Positions 5,881-62,450 of a stretch of DNA of 64,000 bases are shown piece by piece. Numbering within the stretch: the first letter of the stretch is position 1; every line of letters starts with the position of its first letter. A program made the position numbers and the translations under genes. The DNA is taken from positions 78,104 through 142,103 of the forward strand of contig JAFQSS010000028.1 in NCBI GenBank assembly GCA_017409455.1, written 5' to 3'. The notes beneath the pieces are model-generated. The model had not been told where the DNA came from. It did no database searches and worked only from the letters and a program-made list of their open reading frames with translations. Source of the DNA: Clostridia bacterium. Its GTDB lineage: Bacteria > Bacillota > Clostridia > TANB77 > CAG-508.

Positions 5881-5930
5881 AAAAAAAGGACTGTCCCCAA
5901 TTTCGCGAAAAAAAGGACCGTCCCCAAATT
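5881..5930. repeat. REP-like repeat cluster (2 units), right flank of the RAYT-like gene, inverted relative to 4903-4972
   Basis: AAAGGACTGTCCCCAATTTCGCGAAAAAAAGGACCGTCCCCAAATTT. Its reverse complement matches the left cluster almost base for base. Confidence 0.8.
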
Positions 5931-8900
5931 TACATTTGCACTTCTATATTAAAAACTTTTCCTGAGCCATCAAGTTGAATCTTATTTTCAATCTCTATAC
6001 CATCTAATATAACTTTACTAACTCCCCTATTTTTTCTACTAATATTTTTAACTTTAATATTATAAATACTTTCACCAAATTTATATCTTATAACAAATTC
6101 TTCCCAATCTTTTGGGATACAAGGATTAAAGCTCATAAAATTATGATAAATATTTAATCCAAGGATATATTGAATTCCAGCTAGATAATACCAGCTACTT
6201 GAACCAGTATACCAAGTCCAGCCTCCTGAACCAGCTAAGTTTTGAGCACCATAAACATCTGCAGCAATAACATATGGTTCAACTTTATATTTATTAGCAG
6301 CTTCTTTTGTACGAGAATGTTCAATAGGCGTTATCATTCTATATAGTTCAACAGCTTTATCTCCTTTTCCTAACATTGCTTCTGCAATAACTGCCCAAAT
6401 GGCTGAATGTGTGTATTGTCCTCCATTTTCTCTGACTCCTGGTAAATATGCTTTAATATATCCTGGCTCTAGTTTTCCTTTAACAAATGGTGGATCTAAT
6501 AATTTTATTATTCCATTTTCTTTGTCTACTAGATGATTTTCTAAACTTTCCATAGCTTGTATTTTTTTTGATTCTTCTCCTGCTCCTGAAATTACTGACC
6601 AACTTTGTGCAATACTGTCTATTCTACATTCTTCATTTTCCATACTTCCATAAGCATCTCCATTATCTGCAAAAGCTCTTTTAAACCATCTTCCATCCCA
6701 AGCATTTGTATTTAAACTTTCTTCTAGTTGAGTAGCAATACTTCTATATCTTTCAGCAAGTGCATCATCATTCTTGTAATTAGCTAACTCTGCAAATTCT
6801 TGTAAAATTTGATACAAGAAAAATCCTAACCATACACTTTCACCTTTTCCTTCTGGTCCTATTGTACTAAATCCATCATTCCAGTCACCTATACCTATTT
6901 TAGGTAATCCATTTGCCCCAAAATCACATATAATATTACATTCTTCTGGCACTTCTGTTCCAGGCAAGCCTCCAAAATTACATGCTCTGCTTATTGCCCT
7001 TTTACAATGTTCATATATACTTTCTTCAATATCACTTGGTAGATATAAATCATATCGTTCTTTCTCGGCATCAAACAATTCCAAACCTTGTAAATATGGT
7101 GTTTTTACATCTAAAATACTGTAATCACCAGTATGTGAGATATATTGAATTACCATATATGGAAGCCATAATAAATCATCTGAGAATTTTGTTCTTATTC
7201 CTCTATTATTTTCTTCGTGCCACCAATGCTCAACATCTCCTTCTAAGAATTGATGTTTACTGTGTCTAATTATTTGATCATATAAAATGTTTGTATCTAA
7301 AAATTTAGTTCCAAATGCATCTTGTAATTGATCTCTAAATCCAAAAGCTCCACCTGATTGATAAAATCCGCTTCTACCAAGTAATCTACTAGTAATTGTT
7401 TGATACATTATCCATCCATTTAACATTATATTTATAGATTCATATGGTGTATATACTTGAACTTTAGTAAGCATATCATTCCATTTATTTTTAACTTTAT
7501 CTAATTCAGTTTTACAGTTCTGAACTTTAGAATATTTATATGCTGTATCTTTTGCAACCATCATATTTTCATTTGCACCTAGAATTATCGAAATCTTTTT
7601 CTCCGAGAAGCTTTCAATTTCTACTTCAAGTTCAATTGCCATACAAGATTTTTTTCCAATTCCAGTGTCATTATCAAGTCTCATATGATGCATTGCATCT
7701 GGGTTTAAAACTCCACCTTTTCCTAAAAAGTTCTTTTTATTTCCTGTAAATGATTTTATTTTTTCACTACTTGAAATATAAATTGTGTCTTTAAATTCAT
7801 CAACATTATATAAATTTTTAGCAATCAAAATATTAGAATTTTCTTCATATTGAAGCTTTATATATGAATCAGATTTTATTTCATCTTCACCGATTACTGG
7901 TTTGGCATAATAAACAATTTTTATTTTTTTCTTTTTAGGCGCACTATTTTTTAATGTTAATATATTAATTTTTACACTATCTTCTTCTGGAACGAAAACT
8001 TCTACTTCTTGCACTATTTCATCACTTGTGTGAATATATTTTGCATAACCAAATCCATATATTGCATTATAATTTTTATCATCTGGCATAGGCATTGCTG
8101 TAGGTGTCCAAATTCTGCCATTTTCTTCATCTTTAAGATATATGATTTCAGAAGGTATATTTGTTGAGCTACTATTATGCCAAGTTGTTACTCTATTTAA
8201 TCTGCTATTTTTATACCAAGTATATCCTCCACCACTTTCAGTAAGAACTGAACCAAATTGATCATTCGCTATAATATGACTCCAAGTTGTTGGTAATTTA
8301 TTTTCTTTGTTTGTTCTAATTATATACTCTTTTCCATCTTCTGAAAAAGCTCCATATTCATTGTAGTATTTAGGATTTTCAAGAACATTTAGCATATCAA
8401 AGTCTTTTGTATTATCTTCTTCTATTGTTACATTTTCTATTTTTTCAATTGTTCTATAATTTTCAAGAATTTCTTCCTCCATATCTTTAATTATATTTTC
8501 TAAATTACCCAAATGGCTGTCAATTACTAAAGTTGAAACAAATTTTATTAAATTAACATCTTGTATATCCATTTCACTTTTTGAAAGTACAAAAATTCCA
8601 CCTTTAATATTTTTCAAAAATGCTTGATGACTATTTAATATTGCACTTTCGATTTCATCTCTTATATAATTTTCATAGCTATAGTTTTCTTCATTAATAA
8701 TTACAAGTTCTACTTTTATATTTTTTGTTCTAAAAAATTCATAAGCTTTCAATATTTGTTTAATTACATACATATCATTTATATATTTTATTGTAACTGT
8801 TATAATTGGTAAATCTCCTGAAATACCATATTTCCATAAATCCGGTTGTTCATAAACTTTGTATGCTAAATTTGAAATTTTTCTTACAGGATTATCAAAC

Positions 8901-11900
8901 AATATATATGATAAAATTGTTTGATATATATCCATATCTTTTCCTTTGATTTCAAGATATCTTGCTTCAGCTTCTGTTTTTGCTTTTACTATTTCAAATT
9001 CTCTTGTTACATTTTCCATCACTTTATATTTTTCCATATTTTGAATTGCTAAATCTCTATCATATTCAATAGAAACAAGTAAATCTACATATACTTTTTC
9101 ATCTGGTTTTACTTTGATTGTATTTTTTAATGCTACAACACCTTCTGTCGTTAATCCTGTTTTCCTAGACAATGGTGTCGAAAATTTTATTGCATCTGGT
9201 ATTCCTAAATTGTTTCTTCCTATAAATTTTGTTTTATCTATTTCAAATTCTGTTTCACCTATTTTTTCAGAATTTGTTTGCATTTTTGCAGCTAAATATA
9301 TTCTTTGACCATATCTTTCTCTATTCCTTCTCTTAACTACAATTGCATCTTCATTCTCATCATATTTATATACTAAAAATAAATTATTAAATGCTTGATG
9401 TGCATAATCTTGTTCTCTTTTAGATAATATTGGTTCAAAATATGATGTTACTTCAAATATCTTTTCTTCTTCACTATTATTTCGAATTTCTAATCTACGA
9501 ATTTCAACAGGCTCATTGCTATCTACTGTAATTTTTAATTTTGTTTTTATATCTCCATTTATTTTTTCAAATTTATCTTTGTCTGGCATAAATTGTGTTA
9601 CAAATGAATCACAATTGTCTTCTCCTGTCGCAGACCAAATTTCATTTGTTTGTATATCTTTAATATAGAAAAATATCCCTTGATTATAATCATCTGTTGT
9701 TTTGAATCTATTTATATAATTTTCATCAAATTTGCTTACACCATTTCCATTTTGATTTATTGCAACAACATATTTTTCATTTCCAATTACATTTCCTCTT
9801 TGAATTCTTTCATCAATTTTGTTATATTCTCTTACAGTATAATTTTCATAATCTTGATACTTAATTTTTTCTGGTTTTTCTTTGTTTTCTTTAGTTGCAA
9901 TAAATGTTTCAGGCATTCTTTCCTGTAGTAAAATACTTACAGCTTCAATTTCTGGATTTTCCATAAATCTTTTTTGAAATACATTATCATTAAATAAATT
10001 ATTTATTGAAAGCAATATTAGTGCTTGATGATGTGCCATATATGTCCTTACAGGCTCTGATTGCTTTCCTTTTGAAACTCTCTCAGGTGTATAATCTATA
10101 GATTCGTAAAATCCATATTTATTGTACATACCTTCCTTTTCTAAGATTTTCAAATTTTCTACTACTTCACTTGGCTTATCTGTTACTGCTAAAACACTTC
10201 CATATGTTGATGCTACCATATCATCAGCCAGTCCTCTTTTTAATCCAAGCCACGGAACTCCAAATGCTTTATATTGATAATTTGAATGTAAATCCTTTAA
10301 ATTAAATGCTGCTTCAGATATTCCCCAAGGTATTCCTAATTTTTTACTATATTCAAATTGATTCATGATGGCAAATTTACATGATTCATCTAATAAACTT
10401 CCTTCATATCTTGGAATATTTATATTTGGCATTAAATATTCAAATGCAGTACCTGACCAAGATATCAAGCCTTTATATTTCTTCAATACTGTCATTGTTC
10501 TACTTAAATTATTCCAATGTTTTGGTTGCACATCTTTTTTGGCTATTGCTACTAAACTTGCTTGTCTCGCTTCTGATGCTAATAAATCATAATATGAATC
10601 AGTTAATTTGTTTTCTTCTATATTAAACCCTATTGAAAATAAGCGTTGTTCTTCACTATATAATACTCTAAAATTTGTTTCCTCTATCATTTGTGTTAGT
10701 TTATTTATAGTATCTTCTGATACATTTGTATTTCTTAGAAAAGTTCTTGTTGTATACATATATCCCACTAAATTTCCACTGTCAACTGTTGATACATATC
10801 TTGGTATTAATGGTTGTTTAGTTTTTATATTATACCAATTGTATAAATGCCCATTCCATTTTGGAAGTTCATATATTGTGTTTATAATTTTAGTTAATAA
10901 TTCTATCGTTTGTGGAAGTTCTTCAAATCCCATATCATAAGCAGAAATTACAGCAAGCATAGAAAGCCCTATATTGGTTGAAGAAGTTCGTGGCACTACA
11001 AGTTCTTTTCTATCTTCTTGATAATTATCTGTTATTAAATAATTATTTTCTGAAGTTAAATAATCTTTAAAAAATTGCCATGTTTTTTGTGCAATTTCTT
11101 TTAAATAGATTTTTTCATTTTCCGGCAATATTTTTTCAGTTTTTTTAGGTGTAATGCTTATTTTGTACATTATATAAGGTGTAATTATCCACAAAATACC
11201 AATAATTGTTAATAACCAGTTATATTTTAGTGATGAAACTACTATTAATACTGCTCCTATCACTACATTTGCTATCATCATTTTATAATAATTTGTTATA
11301 CTTGTTTTTGATTGTTTTTCCGCTTCTTCTGATGTCATCCATTCTAATAAATGTTTATGTGAAATCATTAATCTATAAATTGTTTTACATATTGCAGTTA
11401 ATTCTATATAAGCTTTATAAGGTACACATCCTAAAGTTAATACAGCTCTATATATTGAACCTTTAAATCCTGTTATATGTGGGACAAATGTTTTCTGTTT
11501 TTTCTCTCCTTCTTTTCTTGAAAAAGCAAGACTAAACATTTCTAATATAAACGGAAATATAATAATTCCAATGGATAAATACGTTAGCCAGTTTGCATTT
11601 AGAAAAATTGACCACCCTAGCAAAATAATTACAAAAATTTCAAATAAACTTCTTCTTAAATTGTCAAAAATCTTAAACTTTGAAAGCAGATTTAATTTTC
11701 CTTTCAGCCATTCTGTTATTTGCCAATCCCCTCTTGTCCATCTTGCTAATCTATTCATAAAACTTGCATATTTAGTAGGATAGCCATCCATTAACATTAT
11801 ATCTGTAACAAGCCCACATCTTAAATAACTACCTTCTAACAAATCATGGCTTAATACTTTATTTTCTGGAATTTCATTTTTCAAAACATCTGAAAATGCT

Positions 11901-12844
11901 TGTACATCATAAATTCCTTTACCTGTAAAAATTCCTTCTCCAAAATTATCTTGATATACATCTGATATAGCATTTGTGTAATTGTCAATTCCTCCTGCTC
12001 CGGCAAATATTTTTGTAAAAAGATTTTTATGACTTACATCTAAATTCACTCCTACTCTTGGTTGCATTAATGCATGACCTTTTTGTACTATTCCATTTTT
12101 GACTTCTGGTTTATTTAATATATGTGCCATTGCTCCAACAAGTTCAAATGCAGTATTTAAAACTAAATCTGTATCTGAATCTAATGTTATTACATATCTA
12201 ATTTGTGGTAAATTTTCTTGATTTATAGTATTAATTTTGAATTTATTTTTTTCGTGTTTTAAAATATATTCATTAAATTGTGTAAGTAATCCTCTTTTTC
12301 TTTCCCATCCCAAATATTTCTCTTCACTTTTATTGTATTTTCTCTCTCTATAAATAAAATGAAATATTGGAAATTCTTGATTATTATACTTTTCATTTAG
12401 TTCTTTAACTTGTTTTAGACCTTCATCAATTACATCTTGGTCAAATTTTTCATCTTTTATGTTGCTTTCAGAACAATCTCCTAAAACAGCAAAATACAGG
12501 TTTTCACTTTTATTTGCCAAATAAAATACTTCCATTTTTTTGAACAGTTCTTCAACTTTTTCTTTTGTTTTTATAATTGTGGGTATAACTACAAATGTAG
12601 AATTTTCTTCATCTATTCCATTTACAAAATCCATTTTTGGTATTAGTTTTGGTTTGACTATTTTTCCTAATATATATTGAATTACTTGAGTTACAAATTC
12701 TGATATTGGTATAATTAAAATCATTGTTGTTAAAATATATTTGGTTAAGTCATTTGTTACTGCTTTTGCTAAAATTAAAGATGCCAGTATTGTTAACAAA
12801 CAAATTGTAGCAATATAAATCTTTACTTTTGTCTGATTTTTCAT
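5930..12844 (-). CDS. cyclic beta-1,2-glucan synthase-like giant protein, main part (TM region, GT84-like DSDT glycosyltransferase, central domain, C-terminal GH94 phosphorylase-like domain)
   Basis: 2304 aa. ITLDSDTDL glycosyltransferase motif amid TM helices. C-terminal GGAFGFRDQLQD, RTKFSDDLLWLPY and GDWNDG motifs are typical of GH94. The reading frame stays open upstream of its ATG into the preceding ORF. Confidence 0.8.
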   Translation of the reverse strand: MKNQTKVKIYIATICLLTILASLILAKAVTNDLTKYILTTMILIIPISEFVTQVIQYILGKIVKPKLIPKMDFVNGIDEENSTFVVIPTIIKTKEKVEELFKKMEVFYLANKSENLYFAVLGDCSESNIKDEKFDQDVIDEGLKQVKELNEKYNNQEFPIFHFIYRERKYNKSEEKYLGWERKRGLLTQFNEYILKHEKNKFKINTINQENLPQIRYVITLDSDTDLVLNTAFELVGAMAHILNKPEVKNGIVQKGHALMQPRVGVNLDVSHKNLFTKIFAGAGGIDNYTNAISDVYQDNFGEGIFTGKGIYDVQAFSDVLKNEIPENKVLSHDLLEGSYLRCGLVTDIMLMDGYPTKYASFMNRLARWTRGDWQITEWLKGKLNLLSKFKIFDNLRRSLFEIFVIILLGWSIFLNANWLTYLSIGIIIFPFILEMFSLAFSRKEGEKKQKTFVPHITGFKGSIYRAVLTLGCVPYKAYIELTAICKTIYRLMISHKHLLEWMTSEEAEKQSKTSITNYYKMMIANVVIGAVLIVVSSLKYNWLLTIIGILWIITPYIMYKISITPKKTEKILPENEKIYLKEIAQKTWQFFKDYLTSENNYLITDNYQEDRKELVVPRTSSTNIGLSMLAVISAYDMGFEELPQTIELLTKIINTIYELPKWNGHLYNWYNIKTKQPLIPRYVSTVDSGNLVGYMYTTRTFLRNTNVSEDTINKLTQMIEETNFRVLYSEEQRLFSIGFNIEENKLTDSYYDLLASEARQASLVAIAKKDVQPKHWNNLSRTMTVLKKYKGLISWSGTAFEYLMPNINIPRYEGSLLDESCKFAIMNQFEYSKKLGIPWGISEAAFNLKDLHSNYQYKAFGVPWLGLKRGLADDMVASTYGSVLAVTDKPSEVVENLKILEKEGMYNKYGFYESIDYTPERVSKGKQSEPVRTYMAHHQALILLSINNLFNDNVFQKRFMENPEIEAVSILLQERMPETFIATKENKEKPEKIKYQDYENYTVREYNKIDERIQRGNVIGNEKYVVAINQNGNGVSKFDENYINRFKTTDDYNQGIFFYIKDIQTNEIWSATGEDNCDSFVTQFMPDKDKFEKINGDIKTKLKITVDSNEPVEIRRLEIRNNSEEEKIFEVTSYFEPILSKREQDYAHQAFNNLFLVYKYDENEDAIVVKRRNRERYGQRIYLAAKMQTNSEKIGETEFEIDKTKFIGRNNLGIPDAIKFSTPLSRKTGLTTEGVVALKNTIKVKPDEKVYVDLLVSIEYDRDLAIQNMEKYKVMENVTREFEIVKAKTEAEARYLEIKGKDMDIYQTILSYILFDNPVRKISNLAYKVYEQPDLWKYGISGDLPIITVTIKYINDMYVIKQILKAYEFFRTKNIKVELVIINEENYSYENYIRDEIESAILNSHQAFLKNIKGGIFVLSKSEMDIQDVNLIKFVSTLVIDSHLGNLENIIKDMEEEILENYRTIEKIENVTIEEDNTKDFDMLNVLENPKYYNEYGAFSEDGKEYIIRTNKENKLPTTWSHIIANDQFGSVLTESGGGYTWYKNSRLNRVTTWHNSSSTNIPSEIIYLKDEENGRIWTPTAMPMPDDKNYNAIYGFGYAKYIHTSDEIVQEVEVFVPEEDSVKINILTLKNSAPKKKKIKIVYYAKPVIGEDEIKSDSYIKLQYEENSNILIAKNLYNVDEFKDTIYISSSEKIKSFTGNKKNFLGKGGVLNPDAMHHMRLDNDTGIGKKSCMAIELEVEIESFSEKKISIILGANENMMVAKDTAYKYSKVQNCKTELDKVKNKWNDMLTKVQVYTPYESINIMLNGWIMYQTITSRLLGRSGFYQSGGAFGFRDQLQDAFGTKFLDTNILYDQIIRHSKHQFLEGDVEHWWHEENNRGIRTKFSDDLLWLPYMVIQYISHTGDYSILDVKTPYLQGLELFDAEKERYDLYLPSDIEESIYEHCKRAISRACNFGGLPGTEVPEECNIICDFGANGLPKIGIGDWNDGFSTIGPEGKGESVWLGFFLYQILQEFAELANYKNDDALAERYRSIATQLEESLNTNAWDGRWFKRAFADNGDAYGSMENEECRIDSIAQSWSVISGAGEESKKIQAMESLENHLVDKENGIIKLLDPPFVKGKLEPGYIKAYLPGVRENGGQYTHSAIWAVIAEAMLGKGDKAVELYRMITPIEHSRTKEAANKYKVEPYVIAADVYGAQNLAGSGGWTWYTGSSSWYYLAGIQYILGLNIYHNFMSFNPCIPKDWEEFVIRYKFGESIYNIKVKNISRKNRGVSKVILDGIEIENKIQLDGSGKVFNIEVQM

Positions 12845-53404: not shown

Positions 53405-53838
53405 TGTTCCTCCGTTTTAGTACATTTTTATTAATGACTTCGTTTTTAGCATATCATATTTTTGTTTTGTATTCAAGATAAAGTTTTAGCAACTTGTCTC
53501 ACTCATCAAAATGTTTAAGAACAAAAAAACTCTATTATTACCATTGTAAAAGATGGTAATATGTCTGGAGTTGAACCCAGCGACATCGCAATCAAAATAA
53601 TGATGTCTACTGGAATCTATGACCTGGTAATTCTGAATAAAATTAAAAATGAGATGGAAGTGATTTTTTAATCACAAGAGACTTCCTTAATGTGTACAAG
53701 TATTAAGGAGGTCTTTTTATTATGTAGAGAATTTTTCAACCAAAGGTTGACACAAAAAAATCAGGTTTCAATAGCACTATTTGATATTGTTTTATATTTG
53801 AATTATATTTTTTAAAAATTTAATATTTATATTTTTAT

Positions 53839-53855
53839 TGTCCAAAGTGGAACTC
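53839..53855 (-). other. degenerate second copy of the tRNA-Leu 3' terminus
   Basis: The rc GAGTTCCACTTTGGACA compares with GAGTCCCACTTTGGGCA of the fragment at 54009-54061. Confidence 0.35.
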
Positions 53856-54008
53856 GGCAAGCCGCGTCGTAAAAAATGTCCACCGGACATTTTTTGTCTG
53901 CGTTTTGGCACTGCCTTAACCGTTCCAAAACTTGCCCACTCCTTTTCGAGCCCCACTCTTCAAAATCAAAAAAATAAAAAACACAGAAAAATCTGTGTTT
54001 TTTATTTT

Positions 54009-54061
54009 TGGTGCCCAAAGTGGGACTCGAACCCACATGGTTTCCCGCACGATTTTGAGTC
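54009..54061 (-). pseudogene. orphan 3' portion of tRNA-Leu(CAA): anticodon loop to CCA, 5' half absent (att-site-like remnant)
   Basis: The rc reads GACTCAAAATC GTGCGGGAAACCATGT GGGTTCGAGTCCCAC TTTGGGC A CCA: anticodon loop with CAA, long variable arm, T-arm and acceptor 3' strand. Sequence upstream of it is not tRNA-like. Confidence 0.7.
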
Positions 54062-54316
54062 TTTTAAGCTATTTTATACTTATTTATTTTTAGTATTAAA
54101 TATTACTTTTTAAGAAGCTCAAAACTATGGATTTTCTAACTCTCACCTTCGTTTTTATTACTTGCTCAAGTATAACATACGTTTTATTACTTTTGCAAGT
54201 TTTTTGAAAAAATGTTAGATGTTTTGTTAGATATGTTAGATGTAATAGATAGTTTATTATTGATGATTGAAAAATAAGACAAAATGTTGTATTATGTCGA
54301 TGGAGGTATCTATTTT

Positions 54317-55348
54317 ATGACCATTATCGATTTAATAACTGAAACTATTAGCTATAAATATTTGTTTTATTTAATTTGCATAGCTTTATTGTTACGTTAT
54401 ATTGTAACTGATTTCATTTTAGCTAATAAAAAATCTAAAATAGAAAATAGAAACGTTAACACTATAGACGGATGGATGGTAATTCCACATCTTACAGTTC
54501 TAATTATTTCTATAATACTAATAGTTAAAGTAAAAACTATTTATAATTTTATAGCTATATTATGCATTCCATTATATATATCTGTTTTAATTATATATCT
54601 TATTAAAATAATAGAAAATGTAAGGCAAGTAAAAGATAGAGAATTTAATGAATTAGAAATTAATTCATTTTTATCTTTTTCTCATTTTGCACTTTTAGTA
54701 TTTACTGAAAAAAGCCAAGAATTTTTTAAAGAATTTTTACAAATGTTAGAAAGTACTCATCCAACAATTTTTCAATGTTTTGCCATAATAGTATTGTTAT
54801 TAAAAACTTTTTTTGTAAGTTTCTTTACTTTATATAGCATACTTATTATTATAAAAAACTTTAAAATAATTATGAATAAGATTTTGACTAAATTGAATAT
54901 AAACTTTAATTTATTTAGTAAAATAAGTAATTTCTTTTTGAATAATGATTGGTATTTTTACGATTTTGTTTTACTGAAAAAGTATAAAAATATAAAAATA
55001 CTTATTCCTATATTATTCATTGTTGATTTAACTGTACTAATTATATGTGATATATTTACTTTTCTAATGTACTTCATACGATATCCTATATTAACTTTAA
55101 TGGTACTATTTAAATATGTATGTAAGTTTATAAAAAACATTGAAAATTTAAACATATCTTTATTTACTTTTAAATGGTTTAGAATTATGATTATATTTTC
55201 TATTACACTTACTTATATAATGTTAAAATTGTTCAATATTAACATACTACCAAATATAATGGATATATTTGAATTAATTTCTACCGTTATATTAATTCCT
55301 TTAATATTTGAACAAATATTTAATATTACACAAAAAAAGACTAATTAA
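54317..55348 (+). CDS. hypothetical polytopic membrane protein (very AT-rich)
   Basis: ORF track gives 54284..55348. MTIIDL at 54317 follows a GGAGG SD sequence. About 9 hydrophobic segments and no family motif. Confidence 0.45.
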   Translation: MTIIDLITETISYKYLFYLICIALLLRYIVTDFILANKKSKIENRNVNTIDGWMVIPHLTVLIISIILIVKVKTIYNFIAILCIPLYISVLIIYLIKIIENVRQVKDREFNELEINSFLSFSHFALLVFTEKSQEFFKEFLQMLESTHPTIFQCFAIIVLLLKTFFVSFFTLYSILIIIKNFKIIMNKILTKLNINFNLFSKISNFFLNNDWYFYDFVLLKKYKNIKILIPILFIVDLTVLIICDIFTFLMYFIRYPILTLMVLFKYVCKFIKNIENLNISLFTFKWFRIMIIFSITLTYIMLKLFNINILPNIMDIFELISTVILIPLIFEQIFNITQKKTN

Positions 55349-55793: not shown

Positions 55794-56146
55794 ATGAAAA
55801 TAGAATATACAAAAGTTGGTGATTACTATTTACTTAATTTATTGCACCAGAAAATATGAAAAATTTTAAAATAGGAAAATACGGAAAATTAAGATTAAGA
55901 TATTTAAAAGAACATAAAAAAGCTGAATACACTATCTTGTTAATGGATAATAAATTACAAAAACATTTAATGGAAATCGATAAAATTGCTAATGAAAGAT
56001 TTGAATTATTGATGAAACAATATGCATCAAAAGAAAATATTACTGAAGAATTAAAATCAAAAGACCAACTAAAATGGGTTGGATTAATGAACAATATAAA
56101 GCACTCTGTTGAAGAAATTATATTAAAAGAATTGATATACGTTTAG
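55794..56146 (+). pseudogene. tnpV: TnpV-like transposon protein gene with a 1-nt frameshift near codon 17
   Basis: ATG at 55794 gives MKIEYTKVGDYYLLNLLHQKI*. Shifting by one frame gives ...PENMKNFKIGKYGKLRLRYLKEHKKAEY..., continuous with ORF 55856..56146. This pattern matches my recollection of the TnpV family. Confidence 0.5.
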
Positions 56147-56157
56147 GAGGAATTGTT

Positions 56158-56484
56158 ATGTTAGAAATAAAATCATTTTACAAAGAATATGAAGATATGT
56201 TTGAAGAATTTTTAGATGATGTTAAAAGAATTTTAAGAAAGAAAAATGAAAAATATATAAAATTACAAGAAAAATATCACAAAATTTTAAATGAAAATGA
56301 AAATCTAGTTTGGGTTTTAGAAGGTCAAACTGAAGGCAGAAATTTATCAAATAAAGAGTGTGTTGCACTCGCAAAATTAGTACAAATTTATTACGAGATG
56401 CAATCAATAGAAGAAAAAGAAATATTCTTTTTAGGTGGTAAAGAAGCTTACTTTTTCTTCAAAAAAATTGGAATTTTAAGATAA
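56158..56484 (+). CDS. hypothetical protein (108 aa)
   Basis: ORF with a GGAGG SD sequence; no motif recognised. Confidence 0.4.
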   Translation: MLEIKSFYKEYEDMFEEFLDDVKRILRKKNEKYIKLQEKYHKILNENENLVWVLEGQTEGRNLSNKECVALAKLVQIYYEMQSIEEKEIFFLGGKEAYFFFKKIGILR

Positions 56485-56493
56485 AAATATAAA

Positions 56494-56560
56494 ATTGTAG
56501 CAGGAGTAACTAGAGCTTTTTATGTATTAGCAAGCACTGAATTGTTACTCCCGCCACAAT
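56494..56560. promoter_or_regulatory. candidate oriT inverted repeat upstream of mobC
   Basis: ATTGTAGCAGGAGTAAC...GTTACTCCCGCCACAAT (14 of 16 positions complementary), followed by the small hairpin GGGACTTTAGTCCC. Confidence 0.4.
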
Positions 56561-56615
56561 TCTGGATGGGACTTTAGTCCCAAACCCTACTATAAAAGAA
56601 ATGGAGGTAATTTTT

Positions 56616-56963
56616 ATGAGAAATAGAACAATAAAAAAACAAATTTGGTTAAATGAAACAGAGGATAATTTATTAAAAGAGAAATGTAAAAAAGCAAATA
56701 TATCTGAAGCAGAATTTTTTAGAAATTGTATAAATGGATTTGAAGTAAGAGAAAAACCTGATGAGAATTTTTATTATATTTTAAGAGATTTAAGAGGCAT
56801 TGCAACAAACATAAATCAATTAGCTAGAAATGCAAATAGATATGGCTATTATTCTGATGCAGAAAAATATAAAAAAGATTTTCAAAAGGTATCAGATTTT
56901 ATTGTTGATATACAGGAAATGTATTTAAATCCTGTTAGAAAGGAATTCTATGGCTACTACTAA
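56616..56963 (+). CDS. mobC: relaxosome accessory protein MobC
   Basis: ORF track gives 56601..56963. The likely start is MRNRTIKKQIW. LRGIATNINQLARNANRYG is the MobC signature region. Confidence 0.75.
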   Translation: MRNRTIKKQIWLNETEDNLLKEKCKKANISEAEFFRNCINGFEVREKPDENFYYILRDLRGIATNINQLARNANRYGYYSDAEKYKKDFQKVSDFIVDIQEMYLNPVRKEFYGYY

Positions 56964-58209
56964 GATATGGAAAATAAAAAATAGATTTGATAATGTTATT
57001 GATTATGTTTCAAATAAAGATAAAACAGATAATAAAAAATATGTATCAGGATTAAATTGTTTGCCAGAAACAGCTTTTAAAGAAATGTCTATTGTAAAAA
57101 AACAATATAATAAAACAAATGGTATTTTAGGATTTCATGCTTATCAATCTTTCAAAGGTTATGAAGTAACAAGTAATGAAGCTCACGAAATTGGAATAAG
57201 ACTTGCTGAAGAATTATGGGGCAATAGATTTCAAGTTATAGTTGCAACACATACTAATACAAAAAATGTTCATAATCACTTTTTTATAAACTCTGTTTCT
57301 TTTGTAGATGGAAAGGATAATAAAGTAAATTATGCAATTATGAGAAGAACATCAGATAATATCTGCAAAGAATATGAACTGCAAACCTTAGAAGAAAAAA
57401 GCTTTTATAAAAACATTTCTAATAGATATGCTAGAAGTAGTAAATATTTAGAGTGTATTCGTGTAGATATAGATTATGCTATATCTCAAGCAAGTATTTA
57501 TAATGATTTTACGAAGATATTAACTAAAATGGGTTATGAATTAAATCATGAACATAACAAAATGAGTATTAGGAAACCACCTTATAAAAGATATACCAGA
57601 GTAGAAAAAACTTTTGGAGAAGAATATTCAAGAGAAAGTATTTTATTTAGAATAAAGCACACACAAGCATTTAAAGTACCTTTTCTAGAATGTCACACTT
57701 TAACAGGAAGATATAAAAGAAAAAACAAAACTTCTATAAGAAATAAGCTAAAAGCTAAAGGCTTACGAGCATTATATTATTACTATTGTTATTTACTAAA
57801 GGTTTTTCCAAAGCAAAAATATCCCCCTAAATACTCAAAAGCTATGAAAGAAGAAATTAAGAAAATGGATAACTATTCAAATTCTGCAAGATTTTTAGTA
57901 AAATATAATATAACTACACTTACTGAAATTAAAGAATATAAATCTTCAGCTATAAATAAAATAGTTGAATTAAAAGGATTAAGAGAAAATTTATGGAGAA
58001 AGCACAAAAGAATTAAAACTGATGAAGAAGGACAATTTATTTGCTCCGAAATTCAAAAATTAGCCACTAAAATAGATGAGCTAAACAAAGATATTAAACT
58101 ATGTAATTTTATTGAAGATAACACTTTAAAGATGAAGAATAGTATTAAAGAAATCAGTGAAGAAGAACATAATATTAAAGTAAAAAATAAAAATAGATAT
58201 GAAAGATAA
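56950..58209 (+). CDS. relaxase/mobilization nuclease (MobA/VirD2-type)
   Basis: ILGFHAYQSF and ATHTNTKNVHNHFFINSVS (histidine triad), with a coiled-coil C-terminus. Overlaps the mobC end. Confidence 0.8.
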   Translation: MATTKIWKIKNRFDNVIDYVSNKDKTDNKKYVSGLNCLPETAFKEMSIVKKQYNKTNGILGFHAYQSFKGYEVTSNEAHEIGIRLAEELWGNRFQVIVATHTNTKNVHNHFFINSVSFVDGKDNKVNYAIMRRTSDNICKEYELQTLEEKSFYKNISNRYARSSKYLECIRVDIDYAISQASIYNDFTKILTKMGYELNHEHNKMSIRKPPYKRYTRVEKTFGEEYSRESILFRIKHTQAFKVPFLECHTLTGRYKRKNKTSIRNKLKAKGLRALYYYYCYLLKVFPKQKYPPKYSKAMKEEIKKMDNYSNSARFLVKYNITTLTEIKEYKSSAINKIVELKGLRENLWRKHKRIKTDEEGQFICSEIQKLATKIDELNKDIKLCNFIEDNTLKMKNSIKEISEEEHNIKVKNKNRYER

Positions 58210-58247
58210 AAATTTAATATTAATTATATTGTTTATTTAATAAAACA

Positions 58248-58278
58248 ATCCCCCTAAGAAAACTTAGAGGGATTTTTT
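58248..58278. terminator. bidirectional terminator between the relaxase and GNAT genes
   Basis: ATCCCCCTAAG-AAAA-CTTAGAGGGATTTTTT. Confidence 0.7.
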
Positions 58279-58311
58279 CTAACCATTCAAATCTGAATAG
58301 TCGATGGATAG

Positions 58312-58929
58312 TTATTTTACCTTGACAACAATAACTTGTGCATCCATTGTGTTCAAACGTTTAAATACATTGGAAATTTTGGCATTCCGAACAGTCTGAG
58401 AAATCTTTTTGTCAGGATACGCGTTTCTGACAATAAGAAATTCATCAGCCGAACTTACAAACTCATTTTTTCTAACAAGCTCATAAATCAATTCCGGAAT
58501 GTCTTCGTTATCCACATTAGGATAGAAATTACTTGTATCACAAGCAAATTTCATTAATGTTTCAAACATTCTAGAGTTATGCGTTTTGGCTGTAAGAAAT
58601 GTAGGATTTTCGTTCTTAATAACTGTTTCAATCATTTTAGAACTAAGTCCTTTTCCTTGCGCTCTAGGATGCAATACAATTCCATGTAAATGGAGAGTAT
58701 CAATATCCTTAAGCTTAGCAAAAATAGAAAAACCACCGAGTACGCCATTTTCATCAAATGCCATACAAATTTTGTAGTCCTCATTGCCGAAAAGATGAGA
58801 AAATACATCATCAAAATCGGTTGAAAATTGAGCTGCATTTGCAACATCTAAACATTGCAGTGCAATCTCCTCTTTGTTCCGAAAATTATTCGGAACGCCA
58901 AAACAGATTCGCCAACCACACCAGTCCAT
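58312..58929 (-). CDS. GNAT-family N-acetyltransferase, substrate unknown
   Basis: LHGIVLHPRAQGKGLSSKMIETVI (acetyl-CoA binding Q/RxxGxG/A motif). Visibly higher GC than the surrounding sequence. Confidence 0.7.
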   Translation of the reverse strand: MDWCGWRICFGVPNNFRNKEEIALQCLDVANAAQFSTDFDDVFSHLFGNEDYKICMAFDENGVLGGFSIFAKLKDIDTLHLHGIVLHPRAQGKGLSSKMIETVIKNENPTFLTAKTHNSRMFETLMKFACDTSNFYPNVDNEDIPELIYELVRKNEFVSSADEFLIVRNAYPDKKISQTVRNAKISNVFKRLNTMDAQVIVVKVK

Positions 58930-58988
58930 AGCTATTCCTCCTTATGATATTAGGTTCATCTTTGTTACCAACTGACATCACTGCTTGA

Positions 58989-60008
58989 TTAGTCTCTGCC
59001 AATAAAACCGACCGCATTATAGACCTGTTCAAGCTTTCCTCTTGCGATTTCATGTGCTTCCTTTGCTCCTTTTGCATAAATTTCTTTTAAGAAAGTGTCG
59101 TACTCTGGGGAATTCAATTCGTTATATTTTGCCTGAATTCTTTCCAAAGTATCAGCAACAATTTCGCCAACCGCTACTTTAAACTTTCCGTAGCCAAATC
59201 CTTCAAACTCTTTTTCAATTTCAGGAATAGTTTCTCCAGTAATTGAAGAATAAATATTGATAAGGTTCTGAATACCCGGCTGCTCATCAGAATATCTTAC
59301 GATATTTTCAGAATCAGTAACAGCCTTCTTAAACTTTTTGATGATAACATCTCTTGGGTCTAACAAAGAAATGTATCCATTCGGATTTGGGTCCGATTTA
59401 GACATTTTCTTTGTTGGGTCCTGCAGACTCATAATTCTTGCACCTGTTTCAGAAATAAAAGGCTCAGGAATTTTAAAGATATTCTGCTTGTAAGTAGAAT
59501 TGAATCTTCTAGCAAGATCTCTTGTAATTTCCAAATGCTGCCTCTGGTCTTCTCCAACAGGAACATAATCAGAATCGTACAAAAGAATGTCTGCTGCCAT
59601 CAGAACAGGATAATCAAACAGTCCAACACCAACGTTTTCCTGTTTCTGAGATTTGTCCTTGAACTGAGTCATTCTGCTAAGCTCTCCCATATAGGTAGAA
59701 CAATTCAGAATCCATGCAAGTTCTGCATGTTCGTGCACATGAGACTGGACGAAAATTGTATTGATGTGAGGATCAATCCCACATGCAATATACTGCATCA
59801 CAGCTTTTTTCGTGTTTTCACGTAACACATTAGGATCCTGACGAACTGTAATTGAGTGCAAATCAGCAATAAAAAACTTACAGTCATACTCATGCTGAAT
59901 TTTTACCCAATTTCTCAAGGCACCTAAATAGTTGCCAAGAGTAAGAACGCCTGATGGTTGAATGCCGCTTAAGATTGTTTTTTTGTTCATATTGAACGCT
60001 CCTTCCAT
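58989..60008 (-). CDS. trpS: tryptophan--tRNA ligase, second (xenologous, higher-GC) copy
   Basis: Full-length class I TrpRS with a KMSKS loop. About four-fifths identical by eye to the copy at 60509..61528. The likely start is MNKK at 59990, after an AGGAG SD sequence. Confidence 0.9.
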   Translation of the reverse strand: MEGAFNMNKKTILSGIQPSGVLTLGNYLGALRNWVKIQHEYDCKFFIADLHSITVRQDPNVLRENTKKAVMQYIACGIDPHINTIFVQSHVHEHAELAWILNCSTYMGELSRMTQFKDKSQKQENVGVGLFDYPVLMAADILLYDSDYVPVGEDQRQHLEITRDLARRFNSTYKQNIFKIPEPFISETGARIMSLQDPTKKMSKSDPNPNGYISLLDPRDVIIKKFKKAVTDSENIVRYSDEQPGIQNLINIYSSITGETIPEIEKEFEGFGYGKFKVAVGEIVADTLERIQAKYNELNSPEYDTFLKEIYAKGAKEAHEIARGKLEQVYNAVGFIGRD

Positions 60009-60070
60009 GAAGTTTGTAATATTGATTTGTCAATGTGCTCTAAACTATCCTCCTAATAGCTTACACCAAT

Positions 60071-60099
60071 ATTTTACAACTTTTTATGTTAATTGTCAA
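60071..60099 (-). promoter_or_regulatory. sigmaA promoter for the second trpS
   Basis: On the minus strand, TTGACA-17 nt-TAAAAT. The leader to the ATG is about 70-90 nt, too short for a T-box. Confidence 0.55.
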
Positions 60100-60159
60100 T
60101 CTTTCCTTCTGATTATATTGAATTTTTGCACATATTTCCTACTTTTTTTACAAAAAACA

Positions 60160-60188
60160 TTGACAAAGTAAAAATATTATGTTATCAT
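60160..60188 (+). promoter_or_regulatory. sigmaA promoter for the tRNA-Trp genes
   Basis: TTGACA-17 nt-TATCAT with TGn extended -10, about 25 nt upstream of the first tRNA. Confidence 0.55.
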
Positions 60189-60213
60189 ATCAATACAAGT
60201 GCTTTTACAGCGG

Positions 60214-60288
60214 GGGAGTATAGTTCAACGGTTAGAATAACGGTCTCCAAAACCGAGGATGTGGGTTCGATTCCTACTACTCCTGCCA
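60214..60288 (+). tRNA. tRNA-Trp (anticodon CCA), copy 1
   Basis: Manual cloverleaf: GGGAGTA TA GTTC AACGGTTA GAAT A ACGGT CTCCAAA ACCGA GGAT GTGGG TTCGATT CCTAC TACTCCT G CCA (75 nt; G1-U72 as read). Confidence 0.85.
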
Positions 60289-60367
60289 TCTTCCATTAAA
60301 TTTTAATGGAAGACAATGACTCTTAAAGAGTCCGAGGCTCGTAATAACGAGCCTCATTCTTATTTTT

Positions 60368-60442
60368 AGGGGTATAGTGTTAATGGTAGCACATCGGTCT
60401 CCAAAACCGCTTGTGTGGGTTCGAATCCTACTACCCCTGCCA
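60368..60442 (+). tRNA. tRNA-Trp (anticodon CCA), copy 2
   Basis: AGGGGTA TA GTGT TAATGGTA GCAC A TCGGT CTCCAAA ACCGC TTGT GTGGG TTCGAAT CCTAC TACCCCT G CCA (75 nt; A1-U72, G73). Confidence 0.9.
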
Positions 60443-60446
60443 TCAA

Positions 60447-60486
60447 AACAAAAAAGAAAGAAAAATTTTCTTTCTTTTTTGTTTTA
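60447..60486. terminator. bidirectional terminator shared by tRNA-Trp copy 2 and the native trpS
   Basis: AAAAAAGAAAGAAAAATTTTCTTTCTTTTTTG. Confidence 0.7.
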
Positions 60487-60508
60487 TTATACTAATTACT
60501 AATGCATA

Positions 60509-61528
60509 TTATAACTTGTTAAGAAATCCTACTGCATCATATACTTCATTTAATTTAGTTTCAGCTATTTTATGTGCTTCTTCAGCTCCTTTATTAAGTA
60601 TTTCAGTTATATATGAATTATATTCTGGTGAATTCAATTTATTATATTTTTGTTGTATAATATCAAGTTCATCAGCAACAACTTCTCCAACTGCTACCTT
60701 AAACTTTCCATATCCAACTCCTTGAAACTCTTTTTCGATATCTGTATAAGATTTTCCTGTTATAGCTGAATAAATATTAATAAGATTTTTTATTCCAGGC
60801 TGTTCATCAGAATATCTTACGACATTCTCTGAATCAGTAACAGCTTTTTTAAATTTCTTTATAATAGTATCTCTATCATCTAATAAAGATATATACCCCA
60901 TAGGGTTTGAATCTGATTTAGACATTTTTTTTGTTGGGTCTTGCAAACTCATAATTCTTGCACCAGTTTCAGGTATAAATGCTTCTGGAATTTTAAAAAC
61001 TTCTTTTCCATATGTCGAATTAAATCTTTGTGCAATATCTCTTGTAATTTCTAAATGTTGTCTTTGATCTTCTCCAACAGGAACATAATCAGAATTATAT
61101 AATAAAATATCTGCAGCCATTAAAACAGGATAGTCAAATAACCCCACTCCAACATTAACTTGTTTATGTGATTTATCTTTAAATTGTGTCATTCTACTTA
61201 ATTCTCCCATATATGTGTGACAATTTAGAATCCATCCTAGTTCTGCATGTTCATGCACATGTGATTGTGCAAATATAGTATTAATTTCTGGATCAATCCC
61301 ACATGCTATATATTGCATTATTGTTTTTTTAGTATTTTCTCTTAATACACTAGGATCTTGATGTACTGTAATAGCATGTAAATCTGCAATAAAGAATTTA
61401 CAATCATATTCAGTTTGGATTTTTACCCAATTTTTTAAAGCTCCTAAATAATTACCTAATGTTAATATTCCTGATGGTTGAATACCACTAAGAATAATTT
61501 TTTTGTTCATATTAAACACTCCTCTCAA
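60509..61528 (-). CDS. trpS: tryptophan--tRNA ligase, AT-rich (native-composition) copy
   Basis: 339 aa. GIQPSG.LTLGNYLGA and KMSKS. The likely start is MNKK at 61510. Confidence 0.95.
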   Translation of the reverse strand: MRGVFNMNKKIILSGIQPSGILTLGNYLGALKNWVKIQTEYDCKFFIADLHAITVHQDPSVLRENTKKTIMQYIACGIDPEINTIFAQSHVHEHAELGWILNCHTYMGELSRMTQFKDKSHKQVNVGVGLFDYPVLMAADILLYNSDYVPVGEDQRQHLEITRDIAQRFNSTYGKEVFKIPEAFIPETGARIMSLQDPTKKMSKSDSNPMGYISLLDDRDTIIKKFKKAVTDSENVVRYSDEQPGIKNLINIYSAITGKSYTDIEKEFQGVGYGKFKVAVGEVVADELDIIQQKYNKLNSPEYNSYITEILNKGAEEAHKIAETKLNEVYDAVGFLNKL

Positions 61529-61565: not shown

Positions 61566-62450
61566 TTATAACTTAATCAAAATTATAGCTATAAAAATAA
61601 TTATTGCTGCTACTATTTTTTTTGGTAGTTTTTCCCTATCTTTCAAAAATATATAACTTGCAATTACATTAACCAAAACACTTAATGCCGCAATAGGTGC
61701 AACTGTAGTCACGTTTCCTAATTGATAAGCTTTTAATAAAGCTACCATCATAAATCCCCAACCTAAACCGCATAAGACAATTGATTTTTTATCACCCTGT
61801 ACATATTCTTCTTTTATTTCTGAAAATTTAATTCTTCCAAATCCCCAAGTTAAAAAAGCAGGTCCTAATAAAACTAAAGAGCTATATATTGGCAAACTCA
61901 TATTGTCGGATATACTAATATCAAGCATTCTACCTATAGAAGTAAATAAATTAGATAATATTCCAACTAATAAATATTTATTTACACTAAAGCTTCCTTT
62001 AGTAAAAGATATAATTATATTACTTAATACAATTAATCCTGCTCCAATAAACCTAGTTACAATAAAATTCTCTCCAAAAAATAATACTCCTCCGACAGTC
62101 GTAAACACTGTTGGAATTTGGCGTAGTACGCAATATGTCGAAATATCAACATTTTTTATAACATTTGTATTTAATCTTCCTGCAATAGTATAAAAAATAA
62201 TTGCTAAAACTAAAAATACCCAAATTTTATAATCAGAAGGAAAATCCCATCCCATTAATGGACACAAAATTAGAACAGAAAAACCTCCTATTAATTCTAA
62301 AAGAACTGTTAATGCACCATTGTTTTTTACATTTTTTGTTGCTTTTTTATAATTTTGATTATATAAAGTTTCTAATACTAAATATAAGGCTATGAAAGTT
62401 ATCCAAGAATTAAGAATATTCATATTATTCCTCCTCTTATAACATATCAC
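61566..62450 (-). CDS. DMT/EamA-family transporter
   Basis: 294 aa, about 10 TM segments arranged as two EamA-like halves. Confidence 0.65.
   Translation of the reverse strand: MICYKRRNNMNILNSWITFIALYLVLETLYNQNYKKATKNVKNNGALTVLLELIGGFSVLILCPLMGWDFPSDYKIWVFLVLAIIFYTIAGRLNTNVIKNVDISTYCVLRQIPTVFTTVGGVLFFGENFIVTRFIGAGLIVLSNIIISFTKGSFSVNKYLLVGILSNLFTSIGRMLDISISDNMSLPIYSSLVLLGPAFLTWGFGRIKFSEIKEEYVQGDKKSIVLCGLGWGFMMVALLKAYQLGNVTTVAPIAALSVLVNVIASYIFLKDREKLPKKIVAAIIIFIAIILIKL

Follow-up and report, generated by a model that had tools for sequence, protein, structure and literature searches.

The left of two tryptophanyl-tRNA synthetase (TrpRS) genes in a 64,000-nucleotide stretch of a Clostridia genome (contig JAFQSS010000028.1, positions 78,104 to 142,103; hereafter the window, numbered from its first letter) is followed by a GNAT acetyltransferase gene. 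This GNAT belongs to a small subfamily, found in a narrow group of AT-rich, uncultured Clostridia of the gut, whose genes almost always cluster with trpS and/or tRNA-Trp. The conserved gene neighbourhood around this new small GNAT family, for whose GNAT-trpS-tRNA-Trp unit we found no published description in the literature searched, is the main finding reported here. Exact matches to window proteins are NCBI records MBQ2836273-78, from a gut metagenome-assembled genome (MAG).

The two TrpRS genes, trpS_L and trpS_R, are separated by two tRNA-Trp genes. A sequence-only reading of the same DNA had proposed a mobile tryptophan-decoding unit serving as a resistance cassette; a conserved trpS-GNAT-tRNA-Trp unit of foreign composition is indeed present, but the resistance cassette found no support. 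In our reading, to which we give about even chances of being right, window 58.2-60.46 kb holds a shortened copy of a conserved block for tryptophan supply and decoding and is no dedicated resistance cassette.

Distribution and neighbours of the GNAT family

Database searches returned 35 clusters of the family among 5.8 billion proteins, 27 representatives at E <= 1e-30 among 1.84 billion, 17 loci in a metagenome collection and 8 loci among 185,579 species genomes. Seven of these last are labelled as uncultured Clostridia/Firmicutes MAGs, and one is a 3.6-kb contig of a Lactobacillus johnsonii MAG. That contig (L027, DBFNNF010000078.1; L-numbers denote loci from other genomes or contigs that bear GNAT or block genes) carries TrpB2-trpS-GNAT and was probably misbinned, because its TrpB2 is 100% identical to that of L005. 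No match to the GNAT was found in 72,556 plasmids, 50,697 phage records or IMG/VR.

Dereplication gave 22 distinct loci, with GNATs 25-100% identical to that of the window. In 19 of them trpS and/or tRNA-Trp lies within 3 kb of the GNAT; the neighbours are trpS (13 loci), an M20 hydrolase (12) and tRNA-Trp (11), in keeping with the earlier proposal that the tRNA-Trp genes are part of the same unit. Since each gene is present once or a few times per genome, the adjacency of the GNAT to trpS and tRNA-Trp goes beyond chance.

The linkage persists over three orders: trpS-GNAT, GNAT-trpS and GNAT-tRNA-Trp-M20. The first is the order of every member with 55% or more identity to the window GNAT, so that the co-occurrence of the pair in other genomes, named earlier as a check, holds. 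The second is found in L030, L033 and L052, the reversal being seen in some relatives at 40-44% identity, and L045 and L046 read M20-GNAT-trpS. In L048-L050 and L053 the genes of GNAT-tRNA-Trp(-tRNA-Trp)-M20 share a strand and are spaced 60-70 nt apart, and L051 has GNAT-tRNA-Trp-tRNA-Trp and then the contig end; these most distant members (L048-L051, L053) have no trpS within reach. Some of the M20 genes near the GNAT resemble ArgE/DapE deacylases, the others PepD dipeptidases.

The fullest form of the block (L022, L040-42) comprises p181 (a 181-aa protein, function not assigned), two tRNA-Trp genes on the opposite strand, EamA, TrpB1, TrpB2, trpS and GNAT; L026 is without TrpB2 and L005 without p181. 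A T-box specific for Trp (specifier UGG) stands before TrpB2 in L009 and L010, YbaK-like genes also lie near the block in L030 and L015, and the pair sits among core genes in L019 and L028 (SecY and M20 upstream; GdpP, L9 and DnaB downstream). In the window's species, 7-10 kb past the right end of the window, L056 1-3140 encodes a TrpB-like PALP, a PepD-like M20 and a YbaK-family aminoacyl-tRNA deacylase, after which come genes for acyl-CoA dehydrogenase, ETF, SDR, ADH, an AMP-binding enzyme and an aminotransferase, and then EamA-trpS_R. L005 also holds, between EamA and TrpB1 (1329-2123), a 264-aa open reading frame (ORF) with a C-terminal PemK/MazF-like toxin domain.

The unit in the window

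Both trpS genes lie on the minus strand and encode 333 aa: trpS_L at 58989..59990 (ORF 58989..60008; TIGR00233, 368 bits) and trpS_R at 60509..61510 (ORF 60509..61528; 366 bits), against a TIGR00233 cut-off of 176.75 bits. Pfam tRNA-synt_1b matches both ORFs at E ~4e-79, and both products carry KMSKS, Asp132, Met129 and GxDQ (numbering of Geobacillus stearothermophilus TrpRS, the sequence used matching PDB 1I6K exactly), which together with the TIGR00233 scores identify them as bacterial class I TrpRSs. Pfam, TIGR00233, ARAGORN and Rfam thus confirm two full-length trpS genes in the same orientation with two tRNA-Trp genes between them. The genes are real as first delimited, although both starts move to the second ATG, on the position of the ribosome-binding site and the gene calls in public contigs. 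The tRNA-Trp genes, described earlier as facing trpS_L, are on the plus strand and convergent with trpS_R, but divergent from trpS_L.

The two proteins are 80.9% identical (DNA, 75.2%), close to the four-fifths first estimated. trpS_L is 55% identical to G. stearothermophilus TrpRS, with every catalytic motif retained. trpS_R is specific to this species: no relative nearer than 83%, which might have shown its native neighbours, was found in the database except itself. Its nearest relatives (80-83%) are the GNAT-linked clade rich in GC at third codon positions (GC3), to which it is sister in a neighbour-joining tree. An apparent 548-aa fusion, P0008, proved to be an internally duplicated TrpRS of another organism and was set aside as irrelevant.

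The GNAT gene (58312..58929, minus strand; 205 aa) begins 59 nt past the trpS_L stop as the second gene of the trpS_L operon. An intrinsic terminator 3' of it (58247..58274, minus strand; a 12-bp stem, then a T run) also ends the convergent relaxase gene. The operon's promoter, TTGACA-17-TAAAAT (60071..60099, minus strand), is as the sequence-only reading described it, agreeing with the consensus at 11/12 positions, and its hexamers are invariant across 9 homologous loci. The leader is only ~75 nt long; at its 5' end a short conserved hairpin (60041..60063, minus strand) was found over the 9 loci with RNAalifold, with 10 pairs and one compensatory change (weak evidence). Its loop contains GGAGG, and a conserved AGCACATTGACAA box comes next. 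No T-box was detected near either trpS, at the gathering threshold or at E <= 1; its absence from trpS_L, stated correctly before, does not set that gene apart, because neither copy has one. No other Rfam element or riboswitch was linked to either trpS.

On the plus strand, a promoter (TTGACA-17-TATCAT with a TG extension; 60160..60188) precedes a type A tRNA-Trp(CCA) gene (60214..60288; G1·U72 and G73; ARAGORN, Rfam 63 bits) and a type B gene (60368..60442; A1-U72 and G73; ARAGORN, Rfam). A terminator-like hairpin (60334..60355, plus strand) lies between the two, and a perfect 20/20 palindrome between tRNA-B and trpS_R (60445..60485) is a possible bidirectional terminator. No promoter-like site proper to trpS_R was found. 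That gene lies 55 nt after an EamA-family transporter gene directly upstream (61566..62423, minus strand; Pfam EamA), which is 73-76% identical to EamA of blocks in other genomes (tblastn) and is itself 47 nt after a class-III aminotransferase gene, counted from the called EamA start (20 nt from the upstream GTG of the EamA ORF); with this tight spacing and no promoter-like site, trpS_R probably closes a long operon.

Alignment to L022 shows how the window copy differs from a full block. Window 58306-60127 aligns to L022 10624-8796 (GNAT-trpS-promoter) at ~80% DNA identity, and window 60133-60464 aligns to L022 4538-4208 (tRNA-B, tRNA-A, tRNA promoter) at 78-86%, the right edge of homology to other blocks lying at ~60464. 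The DNA alignment places at 60127..60153 a junction lacking EamA-TrpB1-TrpB2 (~4.3 kb in L022), and because the repeat AAAGTGGAAA stands at both L022 breakpoints, a deletion between short repeats is plausible. What the window retains, without EamA-TrpB, is a unit of ~2.2 kb between the trpS_R terminator and the relaxase gene end: two tRNA genes, divergent promoters, trpS and GNAT. tRNA types A and B are found together in other blocks; type A adjoins EamA in L005 and L010, and the homologous two-tRNA region is present in L022 and L026.

The trpS_L-GNAT pair, with both genes intact, is on 23/23 contigs read that carry trpS_R, with no empty-site strain among them; 72 contigs are on record with the identical trpS_L protein. 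Strains fall into two types, that of the window and a commoner one. In the latter, tRNA-A is lost to a 100-bp deletion (window 60243-60342), 58237-58244 has taken up a transposase gene of the IS200 family and the relaxase is cut short, but trpS-GNAT remains whole. Against their relatives, the ratio of nonsynonymous to synonymous divergence (dN/dS) is 0.04-0.07 for trpS_L and 0.07-0.28 for the GNAT, values that point to purifying selection acting on both. These observations make it distinctly improbable, in our estimate, that the duplication is a neutral, slowly decaying leftover of one recombination event with no selected function for the second trpS. Such a leftover would agree with the EamA-TrpB deletion, the tRNA-A deletion in the commoner strain type and the redundant active sites of the two TrpRSs, but not with intact trpS and GNAT on every contig read, the 72 contigs with the exact protein, strong purifying selection clade-wide and an invariant promoter.

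The window has a GC content of 27.7%, and 44 other long ORFs in it have a mean GC3 of 0.133 (sd, 0.027). trpS_L (0.335; z = 7.5) and the GNAT (0.277; z = 5.4) are distinct from these ORFs, as the sequence-only reading had anticipated for both genes; trpS_R stands at 0.109. At conserved residues, a G/C-ending codon in trpS_L is matched with an A/T-ending codon in trpS_R 78 times, and the opposite occurs 12 times. Translational selection was rejected as the source: the shift in trpS_L spans all codon families (CAG, AAG, GAG, CTG, NNC), and GroEL and ribosomal-protein genes are AT-rich like the remaining genes (GC3, 0.10-0.17), so the shift is compositional.

The same excess recurs elsewhere. Every locus whose GNAT is at least ~39% identical (L005, L009, L013, L015, L019, L022, L026, L029-L032, L039-L044) has a GC3-rich trpS (0.33-0.43) and GNAT (0.25-0.38). 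EamA (0.21-0.31) and p181 (0.15-0.32) are usually raised too, the raised genes together spanning 0.19-0.43 in hosts whose other genes stand at 0.10-0.17; TrpB1, TrpB2 and M20 inside the block stand at 0.12-0.17, and SecY, DnaB and ribosomal proteins at 0.10-0.17. Between pairs of GC-rich copies, synonymous divergence (dS) is 0.6 to >3 and largely saturated. L033 and L045-L053, the most distant members, share the AT-rich composition of their hosts, and a GC-rich host context for trpS-GNAT was never seen among the loci examined. One old import still ameliorating, repeated exchange from an unseen reservoir and recombination-linked GC bias remain as explanations, and that trpS and the GNAT keep a raised GC3 in many AT-rich hosts is evolutionarily puzzling in itself.

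Function of the GNAT and the question of resistance

The window GNAT matches Pfam Acetyltransf_1 (E = 2.2e-6). Its AlphaFold2 model (predicted local distance difference test, 92.5) has the GNAT fold, with a Foldseek probability of 1.0 to many GNATs, and the fold and motif A (Q/R-x-x-G-x-G/A) place it in the superfamily; the acetyl-CoA motif HP-x-AQGKGLS is kept in 28 homologues, and the family has a conserved C-terminal extension. Sequence matches of the family are to the generic Acetyltransf_1/7/10 only; Acetyltransf_3 (RimJ/RimL class) is matched by 7 of 28 members, weakly (best E = 0.004) and well below Acetyltransf_1/7/10. Fold matches are likewise generic (TM ~0.55) and led by NatD, GCN5, RimI, PaiA and phosphinothricin acetyltransferase, with no MccE, RimL, TacT or AtaT entry among the 50 best listed, so that the GNAT is not of the MccE/RimL class that the sequence-only reading had invoked. 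The best PDB sequence match is YncA (3dr6; E = 0.0035). A specific structural relative was looked for and none could be named, the fold and PDB sequence matches all being generic. The protein is acidic (isoelectric point, 5.3-6.0), so a protein or small-molecule substrate fits better than tRNA.

If the window holds a trimmed tryptophan block, the species, already having an AT-rich EamA-trpS, would have received a second block by recombination from a relative with a GC3-richer version, and the redundant EamA-TrpB would have been lost after import. trpS_L would encode an active TrpRS of the ordinary kind, whose constitutive expression, in a bicistron with the GNAT, would be driven by a strong promoter, with the two tRNA-Trp genes presumably transcribed divergently from trpS_L-GNAT; the unit would secure the supply of Trp-tRNA(Trp) independently of the long metabolic operon ending in trpS_R. 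TrpRS has no editing domain, and gut indole derivatives, tryptamine and tryptophan analogues compete for it. Our best guess is that the GNAT takes tryptophan or a Trp-like amine (analogue, D-Trp or tryptamine) as its substrate and acetylates the alpha-amino group, and this acetylation may keep TrpRS from inhibition or mischarging. The M20 deacylase, EamA exporter and YbaK-like deacylase may then recycle, export or edit, so that deacylase, exporter, TrpB and YbaK-like genes would provide a context of tryptophan homeostasis and quality control. We see a small but real chance of something broader: that GNAT, YbaK-like protein, M20 and EamA form an unrecognised quality-control or detoxification route for Trp look-alikes (trans editing, N-acetylation, recycling, export), or that the GNAT modifies TrpRS or tRNA-Trp, the GC3 pattern reflecting, either way, repeated between-species exchange that gut selection would favour.

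Several points weigh against a tryptophan supply-and-decoding block. The trpS and tRNA-Trp genes counted are those of the window and the contigs read, and either trpS copy may be the housekeeping one. The loss of tRNA-A in the commoner strain type implies that part of the unit is dispensable, 3/22 GNAT loci have only an M20 gene nearby, and the GNAT fold matches tilt slightly to the protein N-acetyltransferases NatD, GCN5 and RimI. Immediately 3' of the GNAT, mobile-element genes are found in no fewer than four different settings, and the GC3 excess with abutting mobile genes would also be expected from repeated horizontal spread under selection.

The tilt of the fold matches bears on the main alternative to Trp-amine acetylation, namely acetylation of TrpRS. 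The GNAT would be a protein acetyltransferase tuning TrpRS (at a KMSKS-loop lysine or the N-terminus) and the second trpS a by-product of pair import, which we consider rather unlikely. NatD, GCN5 and RimI as best fold matches, a match of the L030 member to TIGR01575 rimI (E = 5e-7), the tight GNAT-trpS linkage in both orders and an acidic protein suited to a protein or small-molecule substrate over tRNA all favour it. The margins over small-molecule GNATs are small, however, the distant members L048-L051 and L053 adjoin tRNA-Trp and M20 (the L051 contig ends before M20) with no trpS within reach, and the recurrent M20 deacylase and exporter suit a small-molecule cycle better.

GNAT toxins that acetylate aminoacyl-tRNA are known, and the linkage of this GNAT to tRNA-Trp and trpS would fit a TacT/AtaT-like toxin acetylating Trp-tRNA(Trp), with the extra TrpRS and tRNA-Trp as antidote. 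We hold this very improbable: the gene upstream of the GNAT is trpS, with no small ORF partner and no antitoxin-type gene adjoining; the protein is acidic where a TacT, AtaT or ItaT toxin would be expected to bind tRNA, and has a conserved C-terminal extension in its 205 aa; and in addition to the lack of TacT or AtaT among the fold matches listed, PADLOC defence-system models left it unmatched.

The sequence-only reading had suggested an inhibitor-resistant auxiliary TrpRS. At the active-site positions checked, trpS_L and trpS_R agree in 28/29, including Q9, N18, H43, Y125, M129, D132, I133, V141, V143, Q147 and KMSKS; the sole difference is Ser vs Ala at Gs44, and the F5 position is Leu in both, as throughout the clade. 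Resistance substitutions were sought in trpS_L and none was found, the indolmycin-linked His43 position being unchanged. Documented resistance pairs of aminoacyl-tRNA synthetases (aaRSs) are ~30% identical and biochemically distinct (PMC9437257). Gut-made tryptamine inhibits some gut bacteria at millimolar levels, and TrpRS has been suggested as its target (PMC12993505). Because the contact residues are shared, the identity is 81% and the GNAT is generic, neither target insensitivity nor a RimL/MccE-type detoxifier is supported; extra TrpRS could still protect by dosage, or the GNAT by acetylating an inhibitory amine, for example tryptamine.

Another species, represented by L015 (3589-4599) and L044 (690-1664), has a second, very divergent TrpRS (~32% identity), in which Gln occupies the His43 and Met129 positions. 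Its gene follows decayed fragments of trpB/trpA and is itself followed by M20, p181, tRNA-Trp, EamA, trpS and GNAT. This TrpRS resembles a specialised or resistant paralogue more closely than does any gene of the window.

The wider form of the resistance proposal, that trpS_L, GNAT and tRNA-Trp are a horizontally spreading immunity against a TrpRS inhibitor or tryptophanyl-adenylate mimic, we judge unlikely. It would combine an extra or insensitive target with acetylation of the inhibitor, and the M20 and EamA of relatives would act as MccF-like cleavage and efflux; a set of GNAT, hydrolase and exporter does parallel microcin C immunity. The foreign composition (z = 7.5 and 5.4), the unit's own constitutive promoter, the different mobile-element genes that abut the GNAT in the window, L005/L022, L009, L013 and L015, and the inhibitory gut tryptamine with its suggested target (PMC12993505) are in its favour. 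It is set back by TrpRS copies far closer, with shared contact residues, than the documented resistant pairs (PMC9437257), and by a GNAT outside the RimL/MccE sequence class with no such entry among the 50 best fold matches listed. A mobilizable resistance island, as first proposed, is also at odds with the absence of the GNAT from the plasmid, phage and viral collections searched, with a unit carried by all 23 contigs read, and with the native composition of the most distant lineages.

The supposed carrier fares no better. The mobilisation remnant beside the unit (55856..58209, plus strand; TnpV, DUF6664, MobC/NikA and relaxase, by Pfam) has a host-like composition (GC3, 0.13-0.20), no recombinase ORF was found within 53-64 kb, and most strains combine a truncated relaxase with an intact trpS-GNAT. 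Between strain types the Mob segment is 97.7% identical, as against 99.8% for the trpS part. A relaxase and accessory Mob proteins are present as in Tn4451-like elements, but a recombinase and paired att ends are not. On this evidence the Mob genes are a neighbouring remnant, and not demonstrably the carrier of the trpS-GNAT block.

At the left end of the Mob segment, a 3' fragment like tRNA-Leu(CAA) (54008..54060, minus strand; read by eye) is a probable att remnant, with anticodon loop, long variable arm, T arm and acceptor-CCA, and a second partial copy at ~53838-53860. The strain types diverge at 54020, inside its T arm, and no intact tRNA partner for this single tRNA-like att fragment was found. 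It may be what is left of an integrative element that has lost both its intact tRNA and its integrase. The segment also encodes a 354-aa predicted membrane protein (54284-55348, plus strand; 19% GC) with no family match, in place of which the other strain type has a DUF6602 gene. Elsewhere in the window, a 2304-aa ORF (5930-12844, minus strand) is the largest by far.

Significance and comparison with known systems

Tied to trpS, tRNA-Trp, a deacylase and an exporter in three orders and down to 25% identity, the GNAT family is a cloneable candidate, possibly for a new way to protect or tune tryptophan decoding. A foreign-looking second aaRS gene beside Mob genes need not mean a resistance cassette.

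The window resembles the Streptomyces loci for indolmycin-resistant TrpRS1 (S. coelicolor, S. griseus) in having a second trpS beside the first, under its own regulation. The Streptomyces pairs are, however, ~30% identical and biochemically distinct (PMC9437257), whereas the window copies are 81% identical with the same residues at all checked positions except Gs44, and no producer gene cluster accompanies them. In Deinococcus radiodurans, a second TrpRS (TrpRS II) is coupled to a Trp-modifying nitric-oxide synthase (PMC9437257); it differs in being a divergent paralogue with another partner in another organism group.

The MccE C-terminal domain and RimL, which acetylate processed microcin C and aminoacyl-nucleotides, are likewise GNATs tied to an aaRS-related function, and relatives of the window block, like the MccE setting, have a hydrolase and an exporter near the GNAT. 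The window GNAT is nevertheless not of the Acetyltransf_3 class, microcin-type genes are absent, and the hydrolase is M20 and not of MccF type. AcuA-AcsA of Bacillus subtilis and Pat-Acs also pair a small GNAT with an adenylate-forming enzyme encoded beside it, and the window GNAT's fold resembles protein acetyltransferases; TrpRS as its substrate is conjecture, however, and the most distant GNAT members have no adjacent trpS. Among solved structures, YncA/MnaT (MddA; PDB 3dr6) is the best sequence match and spans the acetyl-CoA motif, although the match covers ~50 residues and the conserved N- and C-terminal parts of the GNAT family have no counterpart in it. YncA/MnaT is an L-amino-acid N-acyltransferase whose targets are the alpha-amines of free amino acids and of toxic analogues of these.

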